Positions 38,339 through 64,000 of a DNA stretch of 64,000 nucleotides are shown here, piece after piece. The DNA comes from a bacterium (GTDB lineage: Bacteria; Hydrothermota; UBA3072; JAPDKE01), in contig JAPDKE010000012.1 in the NCBI GenBank assembly GCA_029258725.1, positions 17,314-81,313 of the forward strand, given 5' to 3'. How positions within the stretch are numbered: the first letter of the stretch is position 1; every line of letters starts with the position of its first letter. A program made the translations under genes and the position numbers. The notes under the pieces are model-generated. The model made no database searches and was not told the origin of the DNA. It worked only from the letters and a program-made list of their open reading frames with translations.

Positions 38339-38413
38339 TCGGGGCGAGTGGATTTGAACCACCGACCTCCTGGTCCCGAACCAGGCGCGCTAACCAGGCT
38401 GCGCTACGCCCCG
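38339..38413 (-). tRNA. tRNA-Pro (anticodon CGG), no encoded CCA
   Basis: Manual cloverleaf: acceptor CGGGGCG, anticodon stem CCUGG/CCAGG, loop UUCGGGA, T-arm GGUUCAAAUCC. Confidence 0.85.
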
Positions 38414-39057
38414 TTTTCTTTCCAGCCCTCCTTCCCGATGAGGGGGACAAATGTGCAACCAAAGAGTTCTTCTTTTATCATTCTTCCATTTTCCTTCCTC
38501 ACCAGTGTGAGGGTCTGGTAACCCCATGCACCCACAGGTATCACCATTCTTCCCCCCTCATCGAGCTGCTCAAAAAGGGAAGGTGGAACCTCAGGAGCAC
38601 CCGCTGTAACAATTATTCCCTGGTAGGGTGCCTCCTTTTTCCACCCCAGGGTTCCATCCCCCACTATAAATATTATATTTGTGTATCCCAGCTCTGTCAA
38701 GCGTCTCTCTGCCTTTCTCAAAAGCGTTTCTATTCTCTCAACGGTAACAACAAGCGAGGCAAGTTCCGCGAGGATTGCAGTCTGGTATCCACTTCCCGTC
38801 CCTATCTCAAGAACCTTATCGGTTTCTTTTATCTCAAGAAGCTCTGTCATGACTGCAACCATGTATGGCTGGGAGATGGTCTGCCCCTCACCTATGGGGA
38901 GCGGGGTATCTGCATATGCCATGTCTTCAAACTCAGGAGGGACAAAAAGATGCCTGGGGACCCTGAGCATTGCCTGAAGCACACGCTCATCGCGCACACC
39001 CCTTGCCCTTATCTGCGTCTCCACCATCCTTTCCCTTTCGTACTTATAATCCCTCAA
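38404..39057 (-). CDS. pcm: protein-L-isoaspartate O-methyltransferase
   Basis: VLEIGTGSGYQTAILAEL SAM motif; surE-pcm pairing; last 3 codons overlap 5' end of tRNA-Pro. Confidence 0.85.
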   Translation of the reverse strand: MRDYKYERERMVETQIRARGVRDERVLQAMLRVPRHLFVPPEFEDMAYADTPLPIGEGQTISQPYMVAVMTELLEIKETDKVLEIGTGSGYQTAILAELASLVVTVERIETLLRKAERRLTELGYTNIIFIVGDGTLGWKKEAPYQGIIVTAGAPEVPPSLFEQLDEGGRMVIPVGAWGYQTLTLVRKENGRMIKEELFGCTFVPLIGKEGWKENGA

Positions 39058-41273: not shown

Positions 41274-41291
41274 GGTGTTTTTATAAAGAAG

Positions 41292-41366
41292 TCGGGGCGA
41301 GTGGATTTGAACCACCGACCCCCAGCACCCCAAGCTGGTGCGCTAACCAGGCTGCGCTACGCCCCG
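41292..41366 (-). tRNA. tRNA-Pro (anticodon GGG), no encoded CCA
   Basis: Identical to tRNA at 38339 except anticodon arm (stem CCAGC/GCUGG, loop UUGGGGU). Confidence 0.85.
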
Positions 41367-41514
41367 ACAGATATAATATAGCAAAATGAAGAAAATTTTT
41401 CAAGGGGGTTAAGGGTCTTCCCTGAGGAGAAAAATACCGATGAGGTTTGAGAATAAGAGCATAGAGGGAAGGATTATCCTGCGGGGAGAAGAGGTGGTGA
41501 GGAAAATCGGTGGC

Positions 41515-41542
41515 TTGACATTCCCTTTCCCACCTGTAAAAT
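41515..41542 (+). promoter_or_regulatory. TTGACA-N16-TAAAAT promoter ending 6 nt before purD ATG (leaderless-type geometry)
   Basis: Hexamers read directly. Confidence 0.45.
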
Positions 41543-41548
41543 AAAACC

Positions 41549-42793
41549 ATGAAAATACTTATTGTGGGAGGTGGAGGAAGAGAGCATGCTCTTGGATGGG
41601 CACTTGCAGGGGAGGGAAGGGAAATATTCTTCGCCCCTGGAAATGGAGGAACAGGGAATAACATTCCCATTACCCCTGCAGAGATTGATAAACTCGCAGA
41701 ATTCTCTCAAAGAGAAAAAATAGACCTTACAGTTGTGGGGCCCGAGGCACCACTTGCAGAAGGAGTTGTCGATGAATTTGAGAAAAGAGGATTAAAGATA
41801 TTCGGCCCATCAAAAAATGCCTCAGAAATAGAGGCAAGTAAGGCATTTGCAAGGGAGTTTATGAAAAAATATGGAATTCCATCCCCCCATTTTGAGATAG
41901 TAACATCTTTTGAGGAAGGGAAGAAAATGATAGAAAACTGGAAGGAAGAGAGAATGGTTGTCAAGGCAAGCGGGCTTGCTGCTGGAAAGGGCTCCTATGT
42001 ATGCATGAGCAAAAAGGAGGCATTGAAGGCTCTTGAGGAGATAATGGTTGAGAGAAGGTTTGGAAGTTCAGGGGATACGGTTGTTATTGAAGAGTATTTA
42101 GAAGGTGAGGAGGCATCCATACTTGCCATATCCTCAGGAGAGCAGTTTTTAACCCTTCTTCCCTCCCAGGACCACAAGCGTGCATACGATGGTGATAGGG
42201 GACCAAACACCGGTGGAATGGGTGCCTATGCCCCATGCCCTCTCATAAAAAGAGAGGATGTGTGGTGGATTGAGGAGCATATAATGAGGCCAGCCCTTTC
42301 AGGGCTTGTGCAGGAGGGAAGGGAATTCAGGGGAGTTCTTTACGCAGGATTGATGGTAACGGATAAAGGTCCCATGGTTCTTGAATTCAATGTAAGGTTC
42401 GGTGACCCGGAAACGCAGGCAATTCTTCCCCTATTAAAAACAGACCTCCTTTCCCTCATTGAGGGGGCAATTGAAGGAAAACTGCCCGAAAGGATTGAAT
42501 GGGAGGAAGGATATGCTGTGTGTGTTGTTCTTGCCTCCTCTGGTTATCCCGGGAAGTATGAAAAGGGGAAGGAGATAAAAATTGAAGAATGGGATGGAAT
42601 AATATTTCATGCAGGAACAAAAAGGGAAGGAGAAAAACTTCTTACATCAGGTGGAAGGGTTCTTAATGTTGTTGGAAAGGGAAAAACATTGAAGGAAGCA
42701 AAAGAAAAGGCATACGAGGGAGTGAGGCACATACATTTTGATGGAATGTTTTACCGGAAGGACATAGGGGATAAGGGATTGAGGTATGGATAA
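41549..42793 (+). CDS. purD: phosphoribosylamine--glycine ligase
   Basis: MKILIVGGGGREHALGWAL N-terminus, ATP-grasp. Confidence 0.95.
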   Translation: MKILIVGGGGREHALGWALAGEGREIFFAPGNGGTGNNIPITPAEIDKLAEFSQREKIDLTVVGPEAPLAEGVVDEFEKRGLKIFGPSKNASEIEASKAFAREFMKKYGIPSPHFEIVTSFEEGKKMIENWKEERMVVKASGLAAGKGSYVCMSKKEALKALEEIMVERRFGSSGDTVVIEEYLEGEEASILAISSGEQFLTLLPSQDHKRAYDGDRGPNTGGMGAYAPCPLIKREDVWWIEEHIMRPALSGLVQEGREFRGVLYAGLMVTDKGPMVLEFNVRFGDPETQAILPLLKTDLLSLIEGAIEGKLPERIEWEEGYAVCVVLASSGYPGKYEKGKEIKIEEWDGIIFHAGTKREGEKLLTSGGRVLNVVGKGKTLKEAKEKAYEGVRHIHFDGMFYRKDIGDKGLRYG

Positions 42794-54416: not shown

Positions 54417-56516
54417 ATGGAGAGGCTTGTAAGAAAAAGGGACGGCAAGATTGTTGAGTATGACAGAGGAAGAATTGTAAGGGCGGTCCGTCTTGCAATG
54501 GAGGCGTGTGAGGTGGAGGGGGACCCTGAAGAGATAGCAAAGGCGGTTGAGATTCAGCTCCACCGGACATTTTTCAGAAGGGGGAGTATTCCCCACGTTG
54601 AGGAGATACAGGACCTTGTGGAAAGGACCCTCATGGAGAGGGGGTTCCACGAGGTTGCAAAGGCTTACATTCTTTATCGCCAGAAAAGGAAGGAGGCAAG
54701 GGAGTTAAAGAGTACCCTTGAGGAGGCAGAAAAACTCATAGAGCAGTATATTTCAAGAGAGGACTGGAGGGTGAACGAAAACTCCAACATGAACTATTCA
54801 CTTCAGGGATTGAATTTCTACATTTCCTCTTCAATCACCGCACGGTACTGGCTCAACCGGATATACACCGAGGACATAAAGAGGGCGCACGACGATGGGG
54901 ATTTTCACATTCACGACCTTGGAATTCTTGGACCATACTGTGTTGGATGGGACCTTGAGGAACTTCTGAGAAGTGGATTCAGGGGAGTGGAGGGGAAGAT
55001 AGAATCTGCCCCAGCAAAGCACTTCAGGACCGCTCTTGGGCAGGTTGTAAACTTCTTCTACACCCTCCAGGGAGAGGCAGCAGGGGCACAGGCATTCAGC
55101 AACTTTGATACCCTCCTTGCTCCATTCATCCGCTACGACAGGCTTTCCTATAAAGAAGTGAAACAGGCAATGCAGGAATTCCTTTTCAATCTCAATGTTC
55201 CAACCAGGGTTGGATTCCAGACTCCATTCACAAACATCACCATGGACCTCACTGTTCCGGAAATGTTTAAAGACAGACCTGTCATCTGGGCTGGAAGGGA
55301 GATGGAGAATACCTACGGTGACTTCCAGGACGAGATGAACATGATAAATCGTGCGTTTGCCGAACTCATGATGGAGGGAGATGCTAAAGGGAGAATATTC
55401 ACATTCCCCATTCCCACCTACAACATCTCAAAGGATTTTGACTGGGAGAATGAGAATCTTGAGCCAATATGGGAGATGACGGGTAAGTATGGAATCCCCT
55501 ACTTCTCAAACTTTGTGAATTCTGATATGAAGCCAGAGGATGCCCGCTCCATGTGCTGCAGGCTCAGGCTTGACAACAGAGAACTGAGAAAGCGTGGAGG
55601 AGGATTATTCGGTGCAAATCCATTAACCGGCTCCATCGGGGTTGTTACGATAAACCTTCCCAGAATAGGATATCTCTCCAGGACGGAGGAGGAGTTCTTT
55701 GAGAGGCTTGAGCATCTTATGATTCTTGCAAAGAATTCTCTTGAAATGAAGAGAAAGGTTATTGAGGACCTCACTGAGAAGGGGCTCTATCCGTATTCAA
55801 GGGTTTATCTCAGGGCAATAAAGGAATCACAGGGAAGGTACTGGGCAAATCACTTCTCCACCATAGGGCTTGTCGGAATGAACGAGGCATGCATGAACTT
55901 CCTGGGGGTTCCCATCTCCACACCCGAGGGTAAGGAGTGGGCAATAAAGGTCTTGAAGTTCATGAGGGAAAAACTCAGCGATTTTCAGGAGGAAACGGGT
56001 AATTTTTACAATCTTGAGGCAACCCCTGCAGAGGGTGCATCCTACCGGCTTGCGAAGAAGGATAAGGAGAGGTTTTCCAGAATATACACCCAGGGAGATG
56101 AGGATGCTCCGTATTACACAAACTCTGTTCATCTTCCTGTGAACGAGGAGCACGACATATTTGAACTGCTTGAGCATCAGGACGACCTCCAGGTTCTCTT
56201 TACCGGTGGAACGGTCGTTCACCTCTTCCTTGGAGAGCCTGTGAGGGACTGGAGGGTTGTGAGGGACCTTGTGAGGAGTATCGTTACAAACTTCAGGCTT
56301 CCTTATTTCAGTATAACCCCAACCTTCTCCATCTGCCCTGTCCATGGATACATCCCTGGAGAACATGAGGTCTGTCCATATCCCCACACCGAGGAACAGC
56401 TTAGAAGATACGGTGTTGTGATTGAGATGGATGAGGAGGAACTCTCCCGTCTGCCCCAGGGTGCTTATGTAATAGAGGACGGAGGAGAGAAGAAAACTCT
56501 TTATCTTGACATATAA
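54417..56516 (+). CDS. nrdD: anaerobic ribonucleoside-triphosphate reductase (class III), catalytic large fragment lacking the C-terminal glycyl-radical motif
   Basis: N-terminal ATP-cone (VRKRDGKIVEYDRGRI), class III core; C-terminal Cys/His cluster CPVHGY...CPYPH; terminates TAA before glycyl radical motif. Confidence 0.85.
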   Translation: MERLVRKRDGKIVEYDRGRIVRAVRLAMEACEVEGDPEEIAKAVEIQLHRTFFRRGSIPHVEEIQDLVERTLMERGFHEVAKAYILYRQKRKEARELKSTLEEAEKLIEQYISREDWRVNENSNMNYSLQGLNFYISSSITARYWLNRIYTEDIKRAHDDGDFHIHDLGILGPYCVGWDLEELLRSGFRGVEGKIESAPAKHFRTALGQVVNFFYTLQGEAAGAQAFSNFDTLLAPFIRYDRLSYKEVKQAMQEFLFNLNVPTRVGFQTPFTNITMDLTVPEMFKDRPVIWAGREMENTYGDFQDEMNMINRAFAELMMEGDAKGRIFTFPIPTYNISKDFDWENENLEPIWEMTGKYGIPYFSNFVNSDMKPEDARSMCCRLRLDNRELRKRGGGLFGANPLTGSIGVVTINLPRIGYLSRTEEEFFERLEHLMILAKNSLEMKRKVIEDLTEKGLYPYSRVYLRAIKESQGRYWANHFSTIGLVGMNEACMNFLGVPISTPEGKEWAIKVLKFMREKLSDFQEETGNFYNLEATPAEGASYRLAKKDKERFSRIYTQGDEDAPYYTNSVHLPVNEEHDIFELLEHQDDLQVLFTGGTVVHLFLGEPVRDWRVVRDLVRSIVTNFRLPYFSITPTFSICPVHGYIPGEHEVCPYPHTEEQLRRYGVVIEMDEEELSRLPQGAYVIEDGGEKKTLYLDI

Positions 56517-56529
56517 AAAGGGGGAGAGC

Positions 56530-56697
56530 ATGGAGAAGAAGAAGGTAAAGGTAAGGGTTATAAAGCCCGAGATTTATTCAAGAGTCGTTGGTTATTACAG
56601 ACCTGTCCAGAACTGGAACAAAGGCAAAAAGAAGGAGTTTGAGGACAGGAGGTACCTGAGGATTGATAAAGTCCTTTCAGGGAGTAAGTCTCATTGA
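56530..56697 (+). CDS. stand-alone NrdD C-terminal glycyl-radical peptide (55 aa)
   Basis: YSRVVGYYRPVQNWNKGKKKEFEDR = canonical NrdD glycyl radical motif; own SD AAAGGGGGAG 4 nt before ATG; different frame from nrdD. Confidence 0.65.
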   Translation: MEKKKVKVRVIKPEIYSRVVGYYRPVQNWNKGKKKEFEDRRYLRIDKVLSGSKSH

Positions 56698-57352
56698 CTT
56701 TCCCGGGGTTGTATCCTCCATAGTGTTTATAGGGGGATGCAACTTCCGGTGTCCTTTCTGCCATAATCCTGAACTGGTTCTCCCTGAAAGACTTGCTTCC
56801 ATCCCATCTCTTTCTCCTGAAGAGGTTTTAAAGAAAATAGAGAGAAGGAAGAATTTTATAAAGGGAGTGGAGTTCACGGGTGGGGAGCCTCTGCTTTTTC
56901 CAGGACTCATGGAGATGGTTAAGGAGGTAAAGAAGATGGGGTTGAGGGTTAAGATAGATACAAATGGCTCTCTTCCTGAAAGACTTTCTTCTTTTCTTGG
57001 AATTGCTGATTATGTTGCAATGGACCTGAAGAGTTCCTTTGAAAGGTACTCTGAGGCTGCGGGGGTTGATGTGGACCTGGAGCGTATAAAGGAATCTATC
57101 GAGCTCATTAAAAAATTTCCTGATTATGAATTCAGGACGACCGTGGTCCCAGGGCTTGCAGGGAAGGAAGAGATAGTTGAGGTGGTGGAATATATAAAAG
57201 ATGCAAAAAGATATGTGCTTCAGGGATTCAGGGGGATAAAGACGCTTGATGAAAAATATGAAAAAATACCCCCTCCTTCCAGAACATATCTCGAAGATAT
57301 AAAAAGAGAAATAGAGGGGAAGGTTGGGGAAGTGTTGATAAGGAATGTTTGA
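56663..57352 (+). CDS. nrdG: anaerobic ribonucleotide reductase activating protein (radical SAM)
   Basis: GGCNFRCPFCHN CxxxCxxC motif, SLIDFPG N-terminal motif; TTG start after AGGAGGT; overlaps small ORF by 35 nt. Confidence 0.8.
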   Translation: MIKSFQGVSLIDFPGVVSSIVFIGGCNFRCPFCHNPELVLPERLASIPSLSPEEVLKKIERRKNFIKGVEFTGGEPLLFPGLMEMVKEVKKMGLRVKIDTNGSLPERLSSFLGIADYVAMDLKSSFERYSEAAGVDVDLERIKESIELIKKFPDYEFRTTVVPGLAGKEEIVEVVEYIKDAKRYVLQGFRGIKTLDEKYEKIPPPSRTYLEDIKREIEGKVGEVLIRNV

Positions 57353-57426
57353 ATTTACTTTATCACCCCCGTGGTTCCCATTCTACGGAGTTTCACCTTC
57401 CCTGATTACCTCAAACATGAATGATT

Positions 57427-57693
57427 TTACAGGTATCCCTCAAATTGAGAAAGGTCTTTAAACCAGTGCAGTCCACCTATAACCATGTAAACCTTCCCCA
57501 CACGCTCAGCAGCCTCCACAAAAACCGGAAGCCCCGGATGGCAGTATCCAACAACTATCGCTCCTTTCTGGGGTTCAAGGACCATTGCATGCTCTATTCC
57601 GAATGTAACAGAATCTTTTTCTCTCCGTGCACTAAAAGTGCAAAACCCAGTGTGCAAAGAGTCCCTTTTTACCTGTTTCATTATCATAAACAA
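57427..57693 (-). pseudogene. fragment resembling C-terminal part of an MBL-fold metallo-hydrolase
   Basis: AIVVGYCHPGLPVFVEAA...VYMVIGGLH pattern; no room for N-terminal domain. Confidence 0.25.
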
Positions 57694-57732
57694 TCAAGAA
57701 GCGAAGGGGCACCTGCCATGGTTAAAAACACC

Positions 57733-58410
57733 TCAGAACCTGAAGTTAAGCGAAAATCTGGTGAAGGTTAAACCGAAGAGGTAAGAGAAGATGCTCTCGT
57801 AGGTGTCCGTAGTATTGTCCCAGGAGTATTCATAGGTGTAAGACGAACTTCCCTTAAATCCCTGGATACCAAACTCTGCACCAACACTGAAGGATGAGGA
57901 AAAGAAGTACTCCCCTCCAATTCCTGCCTTGAAAAGGTAAGGGGAAAGGAATTCTTCTATGGATTCCTTATCTTCCTCTTCCAGTTCAGTCGTATCAGAA
58001 TACTCACCCGTCACATTACCCATACTATCATAATATGCCCAGTGGTAGACGTACTTTCCTGAACAGAAGGCAAACACCTTGGACCCGACCAGGAAGAAGT
58101 AAAAAGAAGATTTCATTTCTTCTGGTGTGTGCATAAACCACTTAATTCCAATTCCAGGAATAACAAAAAAGAGATCCCCTGTGAGTTTTTCACCCGTAGT
58201 ATACACACGCGTGCCCTCTACCGTCTCCTCATACCTGTATTCCCATGAGTAATGGTACTTAGCACCTTCGAGACTCATATAAGGGCATATTTTTCCGAAT
58301 CCATATCCTATCCCCATGGTATTGAGAAATCCTCCTTTGTAAACACTGAATACCACCCTTCCGGGTAGAAAGAGGGGCAAAAAGAAAAGAAGAATAGAGA
58401 GTCTTTTCAT
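57733..58410 (-). CDS. outer-membrane beta-barrel-like protein
   Basis: Signal peptide MKRLSILLFFLPLFLPG, alternating aromatic/hydrophilic beta pattern, C-terminal ...LNFRF. Confidence 0.6.
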   Translation of the reverse strand: MKRLSILLFFLPLFLPGRVVFSVYKGGFLNTMGIGYGFGKICPYMSLEGAKYHYSWEYRYEETVEGTRVYTTGEKLTGDLFFVIPGIGIKWFMHTPEEMKSSFYFFLVGSKVFAFCSGKYVYHWAYYDSMGNVTGEYSDTTELEEEDKESIEEFLSPYLFKAGIGGEYFFSSSFSVGAEFGIQGFKGSSSYTYEYSWDNTTDTYESIFSYLFGLTFTRFSLNFRF

Positions 58411-58600
58411 ATAACACCTCCCTGTACCACAGGTTACGCAGGTGCCCCTTCTTTCAATATATTCTGGCAGAAAATCTCCATATGTGTCAAGAGCGATTCT
58501 TCCCAATTTTCCCTCAGGCGTTCACCTTCCTGAAAAACGCGGGATTTCACAGAAGAAGGGAGTAAATAGTATGATTCAGTAGAAATCAAAAAATAAAAGT

Positions 58601-58720
58601 GCCCGGCACCGTCCTACTCTCCCACTCCCTTGCGGGAGCAGTACCATCGGCCCTGGAGGGCTTAACTTCCGAGTTCGGAATGGGATCGGGTGTTTCCCCT
58701 CCGGTATGGGCACCGGGCAG
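58601..58720 (-). rRNA. rrf: 5S ribosomal RNA
   Basis: Minus-strand sequence CUGCCCGGUGCCCAUACCGG...CCGAUCCCAUUCCGAACUCGGAAGUUAAGC...GGGAGAGUAGGACGGUGCCGGGC matches 5S consensus and helix I pairing; U-rich tract after 3' end. Confidence 0.9.
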
Positions 58721-58725
58721 TATGA

Positions 58726-58752
58726 ATATAATAAAAATCCAGGATTTGTCAA
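58726..58752 (-). promoter_or_regulatory. TTGACA-N16-TATATT promoter placing transcription start at mature 5S 5' end
   Basis: Hexamers read on minus strand immediately upstream of 5S. Confidence 0.55.
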
Positions 58753-58839
58753 GAGGGGAATTAAATAGTAATGGCTGATTTCCTCACATGGTATCCGGTT
58801 TTTTCTCATTTTTTAACCATCATAAACTTATAATTTTAA

Positions 58840-61095
58840 TCAAAATCTTATTCTCACTCCTGCTTTTGCTTCCAGGGTTGAGTAGTCCGGGGAGAAGGAG
58901 TGGGTATGTTTCAGGTTTCCCGTGAGTTCAAAGTTTTCATACGAAGAACGAAGTTCCAGCCTTGTCTCCCTCAAAACCTGCCTTGAGTCAATAAAGGAGC
59001 GCTTCTCCCTGAACCCCGCATCAGCCCTGAAATACTCAAATCCTGTGAGAGAAAAAGAAATACCCGATAAAAGCCTTCCCACCCTCACCTCTTCAATCTT
59101 TGAAACCCTGGGGTCAATCCCATACTCATATTCATATCCCAGGTCCATCCCCATTGAAAGAAAGGATGTAATCCCGGCAAAAAACCCTCCATCAGCACCC
59201 AGGGTCCTGTAATCATAAGGAACAGAATCAGGCATCTCCTTTTTATAATCCTCAAATCTCAACCTTCCCTTTATCCTTCTCCCCTCCGTGAAAATAAGGG
59301 TAAACCCTGTGTAATACAACCACTTCTCTTCCTCCTCATAAACTGTAACCGTATCCCCTGCCGTATCTTCCTCCGTAGGAAAAAATCTGGGAAATATCCC
59401 CCTCCTTTTCCCCCTTGATATCCCGGACTCGCAACTTATCCCTCCCGATGGAGAAAATCTCAATCTCCAGTTATTTCTTTCCTCTCTATTATCCTGAAGC
59501 AATCTCCCGTTTTCCTCAAGGTAATAAAATCGGTTTCGTTCATCCACATATCCTGTGTTTAAAAATCTCCATGGAGATAGCCCCACCTCGGTAACATTGC
59601 TCCATGAACGCTGGGGTGTAAATCCTTCTTCATTCTTCATCAATCTGAATGAAGGTCTCCAGGCAAGTGTAAGAAAGGAAGGATTGAAGGTAAGATTGAG
59701 AATTCCCGTATGAACCTTAAAAGGAAGACTGTCCCTCCTTCTTGTCTCTATCTCATATCTTCCCTGTGCCCTGAGAAACTTTAATGGTGTAAATCTCACA
59801 TCCCCATGCAATCTGATGGAGGAAAGAATTATGGAAACACCACCTCCAATGGAGAAAATGGAACGTGTAAAATTTCCTGAAATATTCCCCTCCCATTCGT
59901 TTTCCTTCCCCTTCCGATACTCCCCTCCTGCCTGCATGGAAAAAGAAAGCATTCTCAGGCTCAGTTTTCCTCCAACAGTATTAAAAGCAAGTGTGTCCCT
60001 CTCCTCCCTTCCCGCATGAATCTCAAAATTCCGGTATCTTAAATAAACCTTCCTTACCCTTCTTTTCTTACTCCCTGAGTATATCCTGGAGGAGTATCCA
60101 AGGTATTTAACCTCATAACTCCATCCTTTTTCCTCGGTATCCTCCCTTCTTGCATAGTCCCCCGAAAATCTCATCCATTCAAAGGGATTTAAACCTATCC
60201 TTCCCCTTACATTCCTCTCTATGTGCTTTCCTATGTTTGCATAACCAGAATCAGCCCAGGTTATTCCCCCATCCATGGAAACCCAGCCTGCCTTTATTTT
60301 GCCTGTAAGGCTCCATGAGCGATGGAAAAGGGTATCAAGTGAAAGCCTTCCAGAAACCCCTGCCCCTTTATATTCAATACCACCATGAAACTCATGAAAA
60401 CCTCCTTTAACCCGGGAATAACCAAGGGTTAAAATTTTTGTTTTTATCCCTCCATCCACTCCATAAAGAACCCTCCCTTCCCCTTCCTCAAGGTATTCAT
60501 ACTCTATCTCCACCGTCTCCTCAGGCTTTATTATTCTTTTAAAGGTTATTCTCCCCCTTTCATAGTCCATGAGGTAATCCTTCCCCCTCTCCATTAACTC
60601 AAGGGAAAGTCCCTCACCCACCCTTACACGCTCACTCCCGACAATTATTGATGAATGCAATAATTCAAAAGGACCCTGGGTCCCATCCCCGGAAAACCTT
60701 TCAAGTTCATGCTTCCCCCTGAGAATGGAATAGAAGCCCGAGAGGAATAAGATTCTCGGGAATATCTCCCCCTTTATCCCTCTCAATCTTTTACCCACAA
60801 CCAGGTTCCCCATATTCCCTTCAAAATCCCCAAGAAAAGCGCTTCCCCACGACCACCTTCCCGTAACACCAGCCCGCTCCTCCTGTGGCAATCTCCCCTG
60901 GTATATCTCCCCCTCAAGTTCTATCCTGCCATAAAGCGAACCCTTTATTTTCAGGGATAAATGCTCATCACGGTAAAAATAGGGATAAAAGCCGGGAGGT
61001 GAGCCTGAAAGAATACGCCTTAAACTCAGGTTTATCACCTTCTCACCGGAAAGGTCAACCCAGGTGGAGTCGGCAAAAAATAAAAATATCACCAT
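58840..61095 (-). CDS. large outer-membrane beta-barrel protein (751 aa)
   Basis: Hydrophobic N-terminus, long amphipathic beta pattern, C-terminal ...GVRIRF. Confidence 0.6.
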   Translation of the reverse strand: MVIFLFFADSTWVDLSGEKVINLSLRRILSGSPPGFYPYFYRDEHLSLKIKGSLYGRIELEGEIYQGRLPQEERAGVTGRWSWGSAFLGDFEGNMGNLVVGKRLRGIKGEIFPRILFLSGFYSILRGKHELERFSGDGTQGPFELLHSSIIVGSERVRVGEGLSLELMERGKDYLMDYERGRITFKRIIKPEETVEIEYEYLEEGEGRVLYGVDGGIKTKILTLGYSRVKGGFHEFHGGIEYKGAGVSGRLSLDTLFHRSWSLTGKIKAGWVSMDGGITWADSGYANIGKHIERNVRGRIGLNPFEWMRFSGDYARREDTEEKGWSYEVKYLGYSSRIYSGSKKRRVRKVYLRYRNFEIHAGREERDTLAFNTVGGKLSLRMLSFSMQAGGEYRKGKENEWEGNISGNFTRSIFSIGGGVSIILSSIRLHGDVRFTPLKFLRAQGRYEIETRRRDSLPFKVHTGILNLTFNPSFLTLAWRPSFRLMKNEEGFTPQRSWSNVTEVGLSPWRFLNTGYVDERNRFYYLEENGRLLQDNREERNNWRLRFSPSGGISCESGISRGKRRGIFPRFFPTEEDTAGDTVTVYEEEEKWLYYTGFTLIFTEGRRIKGRLRFEDYKKEMPDSVPYDYRTLGADGGFFAGITSFLSMGMDLGYEYEYGIDPRVSKIEEVRVGRLLSGISFSLTGFEYFRADAGFREKRSFIDSRQVLRETRLELRSSYENFELTGNLKHTHSFSPDYSTLEAKAGVRIRF

Positions 61096-61835
61096 GTATA
61101 GACCTCTATTCGGTCATTTTTTATAAGATAAATCCCCTCCTTTCCAGCCCTCACCCTTTCCCAGTACCCTGAAAGAAGTCTTTTTCTTTTACCATCCACA
61201 AGATAAAGACCATCGGGCAAAAGAACATAAAGCCTCTTTCCTGCATCCATGGAAATAGCAGGTAACCGAATGGAATAAAGAAACTCACCCCTGTAATCAA
61301 AAACCTTTATTTTATCTTTATCCTTAACAGCAACCTTATTCCCCCAGGCACATAGAAGAGAGGGATTTTCAAAAAATGCATCCCCTGTCCCGTAGGAACC
61401 AAACGAATAAAGATACTCTCCCTGGGTGGTGAAGACAAGAACAGAGTAAAGAACCCTGTCAAGAACATAAACCCTTCCAAGACCATCAAGGGAAAAGGCC
61501 ACAGGGTCCTCCAGGTTCTCACCAAACTCAAATAAAAACTCACCCTTCAGGGTAAATACCATTATCTTCCTCTTTCCCCTGTCAAGAACATAAATCCTTC
61601 CTCCCTCAACCTCAATGGCAGTCGGAGAGGCAAACTCCCCCTCTCCTATACCAAACTTCCCTGAAAATCCGTAAGGGGTGAGAATTCCATCAGGATAGAG
61701 CACACATCCATCAACAGCATCAACAAATCCCTCAGGTACATCAAGGGTCCCTGAAAAATGAATCTCATGTGGGGTTAAAGGAACACAGAAGGAAAAAAGG
61801 CTACATCCTGATAGTAATGCCAACATTATGGGCAA
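61089..61835 (-). CDS. NHL-repeat (beta-propeller) lipoprotein
   Basis: Lipobox LLSGC; repeated GRIYVLDR / GRVYVLDR...VFT.GE.L..FG blades; overlaps downstream OMP gene. Confidence 0.6.
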   Translation of the reverse strand: MPIMLALLSGCSLFSFCVPLTPHEIHFSGTLDVPEGFVDAVDGCVLYPDGILTPYGFSGKFGIGEGEFASPTAIEVEGGRIYVLDRGKRKIMVFTLKGEFLFEFGENLEDPVAFSLDGLGRVYVLDRVLYSVLVFTTQGEYLYSFGSYGTGDAFFENPSLLCAWGNKVAVKDKDKIKVFDYRGEFLYSIRLPAISMDAGKRLYVLLPDGLYLVDGKRKRLLSGYWERVRAGKEGIYLIKNDRIEVYTW

Positions 61836-62125
61836 GGGGGAGGTCTCCTACCGAGTAAAAGTCATAGTCCACTCCAGCAAACCCCTTTCTCAGCCCAAAA
61901 CCAAGTGAGAAACCATCTCCATATCCAGCCCTTATCGCTATCCCTCCCTTAAACTCACACTCAAAACCAAGAGAAAACCTCAAGCCCTCTTCCCACGTCT
62001 CACCCTGCAAACTTAAAAGAACCCGAGGCTCCCTCAAAGGAATAAAAGAAAGACCAAGAGAATAATAAGGACCAAAACCCTCCTCCTTACCATCACTCCA
62101 GAAAAGCCTGGAATATAACCTGATC
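61801..62125 (-). pseudogene. OMP beta-barrel-like ORF fragment whose reading frame continues into the IS left TIR (probable IS-disrupted gene)
   Basis: Frame open from 62125 down to stop at 61801 (…GKEEGFGPYYSLGLSFIPL…GFSLGFGLRKGFAGVDYDFYS…) with no convincing start before the TIR. Confidence 0.3.
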
Positions 62126-63290
62126 TGAGCGATTTTTGTGGGTAAGGGATTATTGTTCTCTGCTATAATTCAGATATGGGTAAGGGAAAAATAAAAAATC
62201 ACCCGCCGGGTGAACGGCGGGTGAGAGGCTGAGTGCCAGGGGAGGGCTTGCATGGGTCGTGAGGTATATTGAGCAGATAGGGGTATATGAGTTCACCTCA
62301 AAGGGGTTATAGAGGAGCCAGAACTTGTATCCTCTCATACGGTAAAAAGGTTTTTTAGAAAGTTCAACATCTTTCTTCTGAGGAATTTCAGGTTTATTTT
62401 TCACAGGCTTTTTATCTGGAGGTTAAGGGTTGAGAGACCTTCATTTATTGTTCTCGGGGTTGATACCATACCTCTTGACCGCTCAGGCGCTAAGAAAAGG
62501 GAGGGTGTTTCTTATACCTATAAAGGTTTTTATGGGTTTCAGCCTCTTGTGGTTTCCTGGAATGATGCTATTTTCAGGGGAGGGAGCAGGCATTGCAATT
62601 ATGGTGATACTGTCAAGTCCATGATTCATGGGCTTGTGAGGCTTATAAGGAAGTATTATGACCCCAAGGTTTCTGTTCTTGTTCGTATGGATGCTGGCTT
62701 TTTTGACGGGAGCAATTTTGAGTTTTTTGAGAAACTTGGGGTTTACTATGTATGTGGTGGCAGGCTTGATGAGAGGGGTGTAAGGTAAGGATGAACTTTT
62801 TAACAGGGCTATTAAGGATTTTGGGACTGAGCGTATGCCTTCTAAGTCATTTGAGAGTACCCGGGCTTTCTTTTACTTCATGTTGCTTGGTTTCTTTTTA
62901 TGGGAGTGCTTCCGGAGGGATGTTATTGGAGCAAAAAGATACCCGTCTGTTTTAAGGAGACTTTTTATTGATATTCCTGTTAGGATAGTGAGGAAGGGGA
63001 GAAGGATAATTCTCAAGGTTCCGTTTTGGGTATATAAAAGGTTAAATCTTGAGGCACTCTGGAAGAAGGTGCAGAGAAGTCCACCTGTGAGTTTAAATGC
63101 ATAAAAGACCCCCTGCAGGGATAAAACTCCGGAGGAAATTTTCCTTCCAGGGGGAAGATGCGTGCAGTTCAGGGATTTTCCCGGAAAATCCTGAGGAAAA
63201 TCAGGGTAATTTTCACTATTTTTTAATAAAAACTCAACCAGATTCTTTCATCCACCACCCCTCATACACCCCTTCCACAAAAATCGCTCA
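62126..63290 (+). mobile_element. decayed IS-like element (about 1.17 kb) with 16-bp TIRs TGAGCGATTTTTGTGG
   Basis: Left TIR 62126-62141, right TIR (reverse complement) 63275-63290; internal transposase frames broken. Confidence 0.7.
62430..63104 (+). pseudogene. DDE transposase remnants (IS4/IS1380-superfamily-like) split over three frames
   Basis: VLVRMDAGFFDGSNFEFFEKLGVYYVCGGRL and C-terminal VLRRLFIDIPVRIVRKGRRIILKVP resemble IS4-type DDE transposase segments. Confidence 0.55.
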
Positions 63291-63305
63291 ATTTAGGGTA
63301 CCTCT

Positions 63306-63998
63306 TCATTTTTCACCTCCTTCTATTATATCTTTAAGATGCCATTTATTGGTACCGTCTTTTTTACATACAAAATAGCCTTGAGCATCCTCCCCTATAT
63401 AGTAGTTCCCATCTATTGAAACATGAACTATACACATGCTGACGCTATCTAACTTTCCTGAATATATATTAATTCTCGCATAACCTCCACTGTGTAAACC
63501 CACAAAGATTTCTCCCGTTCCTATTCCTCCCCAATCATAAAAATAGGTTTTGGGATAACATCCTATAGAATCTCCGGTTAAAGTAATTATATAAGTCGAA
63601 TAACCGGATAAATACGCAATCAAATTATTATCCGGGCTCCATGCAGGGTGTTTTGCATCAGGGTCAGGAACTATGCAGTGATTATTACTCCCATCCCTGT
63701 CCATCACCCATATCCCGGAATCTGGTTTTTCATAAACTATCTGAGAAGCATCAGGTGAAAAATCAGGATTTATACCCGAACCAACCTTTTGAAGCCCTGT
63801 CCCATCTCGCCTGATTACCCATATCCCTCCCTTAAAACACTCTCCAGTAATCTCATCTATTTCTAAAGGAATACCCACAACTACCCAATCCTGAGCAGAT
63901 GAAAGCGATAAACCAAAAGAATAATAATCCTTCTCAGGAACATCATACACAACCCCGAGGGACTCCATACCACTCCCATCAGCATTACACTGCATCAA
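63306..63998 (-). CDS. WD40-like beta-propeller (TolB/PD40-repeat) protein, 5' end off window
   Basis: Repeats DFSPDASQIVY / AWSPDNNLIAY; ORF reaches window edge. Confidence 0.55.
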   Translation of the reverse strand: MMQCNADGSGMESLGVVYDVPEKDYYSFGLSLSSAQDWVVVGIPLEIDEITGECFKGGIWVIRRDGTGLQKVGSGINPDFSPDASQIVYEKPDSGIWVMDRDGSNNHCIVPDPDAKHPAWSPDNNLIAYLSGYSTYIITLTGDSIGCYPKTYFYDWGGIGTGEIFVGLHSGGYARINIYSGKLDSVSMCIVHVSIDGNYYIGEDAQGYFVCKKDGTNKWHLKDIIEGGEK

Positions 63999-64000
63999 AA

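Follow-up and report, generated by a model that had tools for sequence, protein, structure and literature searches.

The minus strand of the 64,000-nucleotide stretch of bacterial DNA analysed here (the window) carries a 5S rRNA gene that is separated from 23S, and this gene is probably functional and expressed as a very short transcription unit of its own. The first-pass annotation had already read it as transcribed alone, outside an rrn operon, and this reading is supported at the sequence level by the isolation of the gene, by its near-consensus promoter, by the identity of the promoter and 5S cassette between assemblies and by the likeness of a tRNA-Pro gene in the same window. The setting is that of an ordinary bacterial chromosome, with mur genes accompanied by a penicillin-binding protein gene, purD, otsAB and nrdDG.

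An intact 5S rRNA gene apart from 16S and 23S

The 5S rRNA gene occupies positions 58601-58717 (-) and matches the Rfam 5S family (RF00001) with 107.9 bits (E 9.5e-23), well above the gathering score of 38. The match spans model positions 1-120, so the gene is full-length and not truncated. Its strand is the one given in the first-pass annotation; its length is 117 nt (118 if G58718 is counted) and not the 120 nt stated there. The G+C content of the gene is 65%, against a window average of about 45%, and the only other structured RNAs in the 64 kb are two tRNA-Pro genes.

To check its structure, the sequence was aligned with 11 other 5S genes having the same 48-nt core. Helices I-V are maintained, 38 of 39 consensus pairs being kept as standard pairs, and at two pairs (8-109 and 14-66) both sides have changed in a way peculiar to the window sequence. 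A single G.A is found at pair 67-106, where the relatives have G.U. The bit score falls inside the range of operon-linked 5S genes (102-121). Since its helices are kept, its changes are compensatory and its score is that of a linked gene, the 5S gene is, judged by its sequence, intact and not a decaying relic.

As the first-pass annotation had noted, no 16S or 23S gene lies in the window: Rfam scans at gathering thresholds gave no SSU or LSU match anywhere in the 64 kb, and in a permissive scan of 56500-64000 (E<=1) the 5S was the sole match. A degenerate 23S remnant on the upstream side was also considered and rejected, as nothing matched at E<=1. The 5S is thus surrounded by 23S-free DNA for 5.3 kb upstream and 58 kb downstream, and no 23S gene stands a short spacer upstream of it on the same strand, as it does in a canonical rrn operon. 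Further assemblies were retrieved via the NrdD protein of the organism, among them L020, L021, L022 and L023 from four other samples, which are 99.1-99.7% identical to the window. Both L020 and L023, when scanned, contain the 5S and lack a 23S, so that the 23S gene which another assembly might have placed next to the 5S was found in neither, and the window, L023, L032 and L033 yielded no rRNA partner even at permissive thresholds.

To see how such genes are placed in other bacteria, the 48-nt 5S core was searched against genome contigs. This returned 17 loci, all from other phyla, and every one of the 13 5S genes examined (L001-L009, L011, L013, L015 and L016, from Aminicenantes/Saccharicenans, Desulfobacterota and other MAGs) sits 38-158 nt downstream of a 23S gene. 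Four of these 23S genes, from Aminicenantes/Saccharicenans MAGs (L003, L008, L013 and L015), are 3.7-4.7 kb long against the usual length of about 2.9 kb, and those of L013 and L015 contain group I intron matches. A 35-mer from the 3' half of the window 5S, scanned against JGI metagenomes, was found on one contig only, which was already among those retrieved for the organism.

Protein ORFs flank the 5S on both sides, in the window as well as in the alternative arrangement of L023 described below. The upstream neighbour in the window encodes 751 aa (58840-61095, -), lies on the same strand as the 5S and ends in ...GVRIRF, while the downstream neighbour encodes 225 aa (57733-58410, -), has a signal-peptide-like N-terminus, ends in ...SLNFRF and is preceded by a promoter-like site of its own (58490-58461). 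Neither has a Pfam match or homologues beyond its own 90% cluster, those of the 751-aa ORF being confined to the species. Exact look-ups of the 751-aa product, of the 248-aa product and of P0122 found nothing, and a single-sequence AlphaFold2 model of the 225-aa protein is uninformative (pLDDT 38). The first-pass description of the 5S as embedded between OMP genes is therefore shaky: protein ORFs do lie on both sides, but the upstream neighbour differs between assemblies (see below), and the tentative OMP label goes back to signal-peptide-like and C-terminal ...RF features, no Pfam family or homologue having been found for either protein.

Promoter, predicted start and 3' end

A -35 hexamer TTGACA (58747-58752, -) and a -10 hexamer TATATT (58725-58730, -), separated by 16 nt and identical in L020-L023, lie directly upstream of the 5S. 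Together (58752-58725) they agree with the sigma-70 consensus in 11 of 12 bases, with a spacing inside the 16-18 nt and a purine start inside the 6-8 nt past the -10 that are typical of this promoter type. The start predicted from the position of the hexamers is G58718 (-), 7 nt after the -10. The promoter and the coincidence of its +1 with the mature 5' end had both been pointed out in the first-pass annotation; the position given there, 58720, gives way to G58718. This base is one ahead of the 5' end of the Rfam match and pairs with C58601 in the MFE fold, which makes helix I a blunt 10-bp stem of eight G-C and two G.U pairs. Alternative registers of the -10 were rejected, as the other hexamers fit poorly or need spacers of 13-15 nt.

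Matches of this quality are unusually frequent in the window, which contains nine sites with at least 11 of 12 positions, compared with 0.86 +/- 0.87 in Markov-1 simulations. Seven of the nine are intergenic and correctly oriented upstream of a gene, including nrdD, purD and the cold-shock gene csp. This roughly 10-fold enrichment, along with the placement of the sites, suggests that the organism evidently uses a sigma-70-type consensus. From the simulated null rate, the probability that such a site would arise by chance on the correct strand, with its end 5-9 nt ahead of the 5S, is calculated to be of the order of 3e-5. The identity of the promoter between assemblies, being seen among strains that are about 99% identical, says little on its conservation.

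A similar layout is found at the tRNA-Pro(GGG) gene (41366-41291, -), where TTGAAA-17-TATATT ends 8 nt before the mature 5' end; in this region (41291-41403, -) a TG stands one base before the -10 and the predicted start is CTG, as at the 5S. Given this match in layout, compact promoter-RNA units seem to be the house style for stable RNA genes in this genome. The second tRNA-Pro gene (CGG; region 38339-38700, -) abuts the end of ORF 38404-39057 and is directly followed by TTTTTAT; a perfect 12/12 promoter (38700-38672, -) lies inside that ORF, about 255 nt upstream of the tRNA. Elsewhere, 6 nt separate the end of the purD promoter (TTGACA-16-TAAAAT; region 41515-41551, +) from the ATG at 41549, which makes a leaderless purD mRNA probable.

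At the other end of the gene, the last base of the 5S, C58601, is followed by ACTTTTATTTTTTGA at 58600-58586 (-), so that in the RNA ACUUUUAUUUUUU comes directly after the 10-bp helix I. This putative termination tract (58586-58600, -; AC, U4, A, U6, GA) was picked up as a terminator-like site in a pattern scan. The strong stem beside the U-run is helix I itself, which closes the three-way junction, and with it the whole 5S, and not a short loop; as a canonical hairpin before the T-run, the pattern scan offered a weak 5-bp stem only. The U-tract reported in the first-pass annotation is thus present, but it is not special to this locus, as 11 of the 13 operon-linked 5S genes likewise have a T-run 0-2 nt from the 5S 3' end and no separate hairpin. 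This suggests that helix I and the U-run together form a common rrn operon terminator. By the same comparison, the T-run at the window 5S would be no new acquisition but the ordinary end of an rrn operon, carried along when the 5S was separated, leaving the promoter as the only new part.

Expression of the 5S as a separate unit would then proceed as follows. The sigma-70-type promoter would start RNA polymerase holoenzyme at G58718, give or take about 2 nt, which is essentially the mature 5' end, so that little or no 5' processing would be needed. After the transcription of about 130 nt, the emerging 3' strand of helix I would close the 10-bp, G+C-rich stem and the polymerase would stop in the U4-A-U6 tract, leaving a few 3' nucleotides to be trimmed by exonucleases. 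The promoter would take the place of the 23S-5S spacer, with the T-run inherited from the rrn operon end. We infer the activity of the promoter, the exact points of start and stop and the 3' trimming from the sequence. Since the upstream genes share the strand of the 5S and the pattern scan found no terminator between the stop of the upstream ORF (58840) and the promoter (58753), longer transcripts that read through from upstream and require processing could be made as well.

Variation upstream of the gene and rival explanations

The segment containing the promoter, the 5S and the T-run (58560-58790) is identical in L020, L021, L022 and L023, in each of which the 5S is preceded by 177 nt or more of sequence other than rRNA. 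Across the five assemblies, including that of the window, the 5S is 100% identical, with SNPs and an indel in the flanking intergenic DNA, and all five read through the 5S into unique sequence on both sides. This read-through fits a single-copy 5S, though it is no proof of one.

Further upstream, the assemblies differ. The 3'-terminal 151 nt of the 751-aa ORF, reaching to the stop codon (58840-58990, -), are a repeat with two contexts, in one of which it closes the intact ORF, while in the other it is a remnant ahead of the 5S (L032:5365-5515; L023:4578-4728), and these 151 nt, 98% identical, are all that L032 and L023 have in common. L032 carries the full 751-aa ORF followed by khpA-trmD-rplS-rnhB and not by the 5S, and matches the window only over 62117-58840. 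L023 matches the window up to 58990 and has different genes beyond, in the order HEAT-repeat gene and 72-aa ORF, 151-nt remnant, promoter and 5S. The full 751-aa ORF is joined to the 5S in the window and in L020, which crosses the junction by 174 nt (ending at 59164) and has SNPs of the L032 type on the ORF side and of the L023 type on the 5S side. The contigs of L021 and L022 end at 58956 and 58894, inside or just short of the repeat. Because assemblies of one species part into three arrangements at this repeat, that of the window at 58840-58990 may be a true recombinant or a chimera, and the protein gene ending at 58840, which the first-pass annotation gives as the upstream neighbour, holds for the window but is not shared by all assemblies.

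The ambiguity at the junction is immaterial to the 5S question. Over the 273 nt upstream of the 5S (58718-58990), a stretch that contains no rRNA, the versions are in agreement, and past it each of the two continuations codes for protein (1.07 kb in L023, 5.3 kb in the window); apart from the 5S, Rfam scans of the two continuations gave no match at E<=0.1 to 1.

The other edge of the block is marked by an IS-like element (62116-63300) that is bounded by inverted repeats of 26 nt (62116-62141 and 63275-63300) and has broken ORFs with sub-threshold DDE-transposase matches. At this edge (62116/62117) the element truncates a 260-aa gene, as indicated by the L032 match to the window, which stops exactly at 62117.

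The contigs of the closest NrdD relatives (L026-L030) have only nrdDG in common with the window and carry no 5S, so they are uninformative on the arrangement. The DNA identity of the closest relatives' nrdDG to the window is 94% and 72%, and the similarity of NrdD to proteins of WOR-3, Aminicenantes, Thermodesulfobacteria and Aquificota (69-73%) is not diagnostic of taxonomy. In the window, the nrdD gene (699 aa) is followed, 13 nt past its stop, by a separate 55-aa ORF (56530-56697, +) with a Pfam NRDD match, also found in L026 and L028-L030. This ORF contains the sequence RVVGYY, a candidate for what we take to be the glycyl-radical motif, and a C-terminal segment of NrdD appears to be encoded as a small gene of its own that is conserved in relatives.

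An orphan extra copy of the 5S, with a normal 16S-23S-5S or 23S-5S operon elsewhere in the genome, would be compatible with the own-promoter mechanism proposed above. The numbers of rRNA genes are uneven in 22% of complete genomes, with 5S averaging slightly more copies than 23S (bioRxiv 10.1101/2025.06.23.661116). However, five assemblies pass unbroken through the 117-nt gene into unique flanks, the JGI metagenomes hold the 35-mer on one contig only and the gene has no sign of decay. These points are not decisive, since rRNA operons are poorly recovered in assemblies and any second copy might have another sequence, and we consider an extra copy somewhat unlikely. Much harder to reconcile with the data is a non-functional relic of a broken rrn operon, to which the distance from 23S and the one G.A at pair 67-106 (G.U in relatives) might point: the score of 107.9 bits is that of a linked gene, all helices are intact and carry compensatory changes of their own, and the sequence is 100% identical in five assemblies, with SNPs and an indel in its intergenic flanks. 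We regard this explanation as very improbable.

The absence of a terminator-like site at 58840-58753 and the presence, in the window and in L023, of upstream ORFs on the same strand would also allow the 5S to be transcribed together with one or more protein genes upstream and excised by RNases, in which case the promoter hexamers would be incidental or minor. A fold of 301 nt even shows the T-run (58586-58599) paired with an A-rich stretch (58812-58795), which lies about 80 nt upstream of the 5S and is roughly complementary to it, in a way that resembles a processing stem, but this long-range A/U pairing involves low-complexity sequence, the fold lacks significance (z-score -1.6) and the A-run differs by an indel between strains. 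An 11/12 promoter with its +1 on the first base of helix I, expected by chance at a rate of about 3e-5, and the same promoter layout at tRNA-Pro(GGG) speak further against co-transcription, which seems improbable to us. As for an assembly artefact, in which the contig would be chimeric and the true 23S would lie just upstream, the suspicion arises from the join to the 751-aa ORF through the 151-nt repeat, from the contigs of three other assemblies ending at 58894, 58956 and 59164, and from the different continuation of L023 and the linkage of the 751-aa ORF to khpA-trmD-rplS in L032. Whichever continuation is correct, though, the agreed 273 nt are non-rRNA and the sequence beyond is protein-coding and free of Rfam matches at the thresholds given above, while linked 5S genes are only 38-158 nt from their 23S; a hidden 23S is therefore highly unlikely.

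Stand-alone 5S genes elsewhere and the meaning of this one

In most bacteria, equal amounts of the rRNAs are secured via one common precursor; where this is not so, one has to ask what keeps them in balance and which RNases remain necessary. Reports from several bacteria describe a 5S gene split from a 16S-23S operon, and all three rRNA genes are fully separate in Leptospira interrogans (PMC6582327), whose single 5S copy is physically apart from 16S and 23S (PMC3037291). The L. interrogans rrf is like the window gene in being a bacterial 5S gene away from 16S/23S, but its host is a mesophilic spirochaete, whereas the window belongs to an apparently thermophilic MAG (thermophily being suggested by stable RNAs of 65% G+C in a genome of 45% G+C). 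The Leptospira 5S reportedly measures 117 nt as well, with A+T-rich flanks and a promoter in the 5' flank, in the work of Fukunaga et al. in J Bacteriol in 1990. In Mycoplasma hominis, two unlinked 5S genes accompany a pair of 16S-23S operons (PMC4342427), and rearrangement of rRNA genes has been connected with genome reduction (PMC6582327). The reduced, host-dependent genomes of mycoplasmas contrast with the ordinary chromosome of free-living type seen in the window, with its mur genes, purD, otsAB and nrdDG.

Where archaea transcribe 5S on its own, transcription begins close to the mature 5' end, or exactly there, and stops in a T-run. Some archaea have their 5S as an independent unit, apart from 16S-23S (PMC8997704). 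The units of Thermoplasma and many Crenarchaeota share with the window gene this independence of 5S from 16S-23S, but use TATA/BRE promoters and the archaeal polymerase, unlike the bacterial -35 and -10 hexamers at the window 5S. The canonical rrn 3' end (23S, short spacer, 5S and T-run) has the same 5S core and the same T-run after helix I as the window gene, the difference being that in the window there is no 23S and the 38-158-nt spacer is replaced by a promoter, so that no 5' release of the RNase III, E or M5 type would be needed.

Stand-alone 5S genes are uncommon but known from Leptospira, Mycoplasma and many archaea, and the gain over those cases is incremental; a survey of unlinked rRNA genes (bioRxiv 10.1101/705046) leaves 5S aside. 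What is new is a stand-alone 5S in an apparently thermophilic MAG lineage, with the predicted coincidence of transcription start and mature 5' end as its noteworthy feature: a 5S promoter that starts at this position would dispense with any 5' processing enzyme. The case also illustrates that a solitary 5S on a contig of a MAG need not come from a broken operon but can be real, and it flags a repeat-mediated ambiguity in the assembly of the window.

We would go one step further only tentatively, with more doubt than conviction: this gene might be the sole 5S of a free-living thermophile, made as a processing-free primary transcript whose 5' triphosphate is the mature end and whose helix I serves as the terminator stem. 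If this were true, it would be a bacterial counterpart of the archaeal and Pol III 5S units, built on the same minimal design of promoter, RNA and T-run as the tRNA genes of its own genome, and the supply of 5S would be uncoupled from 23S synthesis outside the reduced genomes in which such uncoupling is best known.
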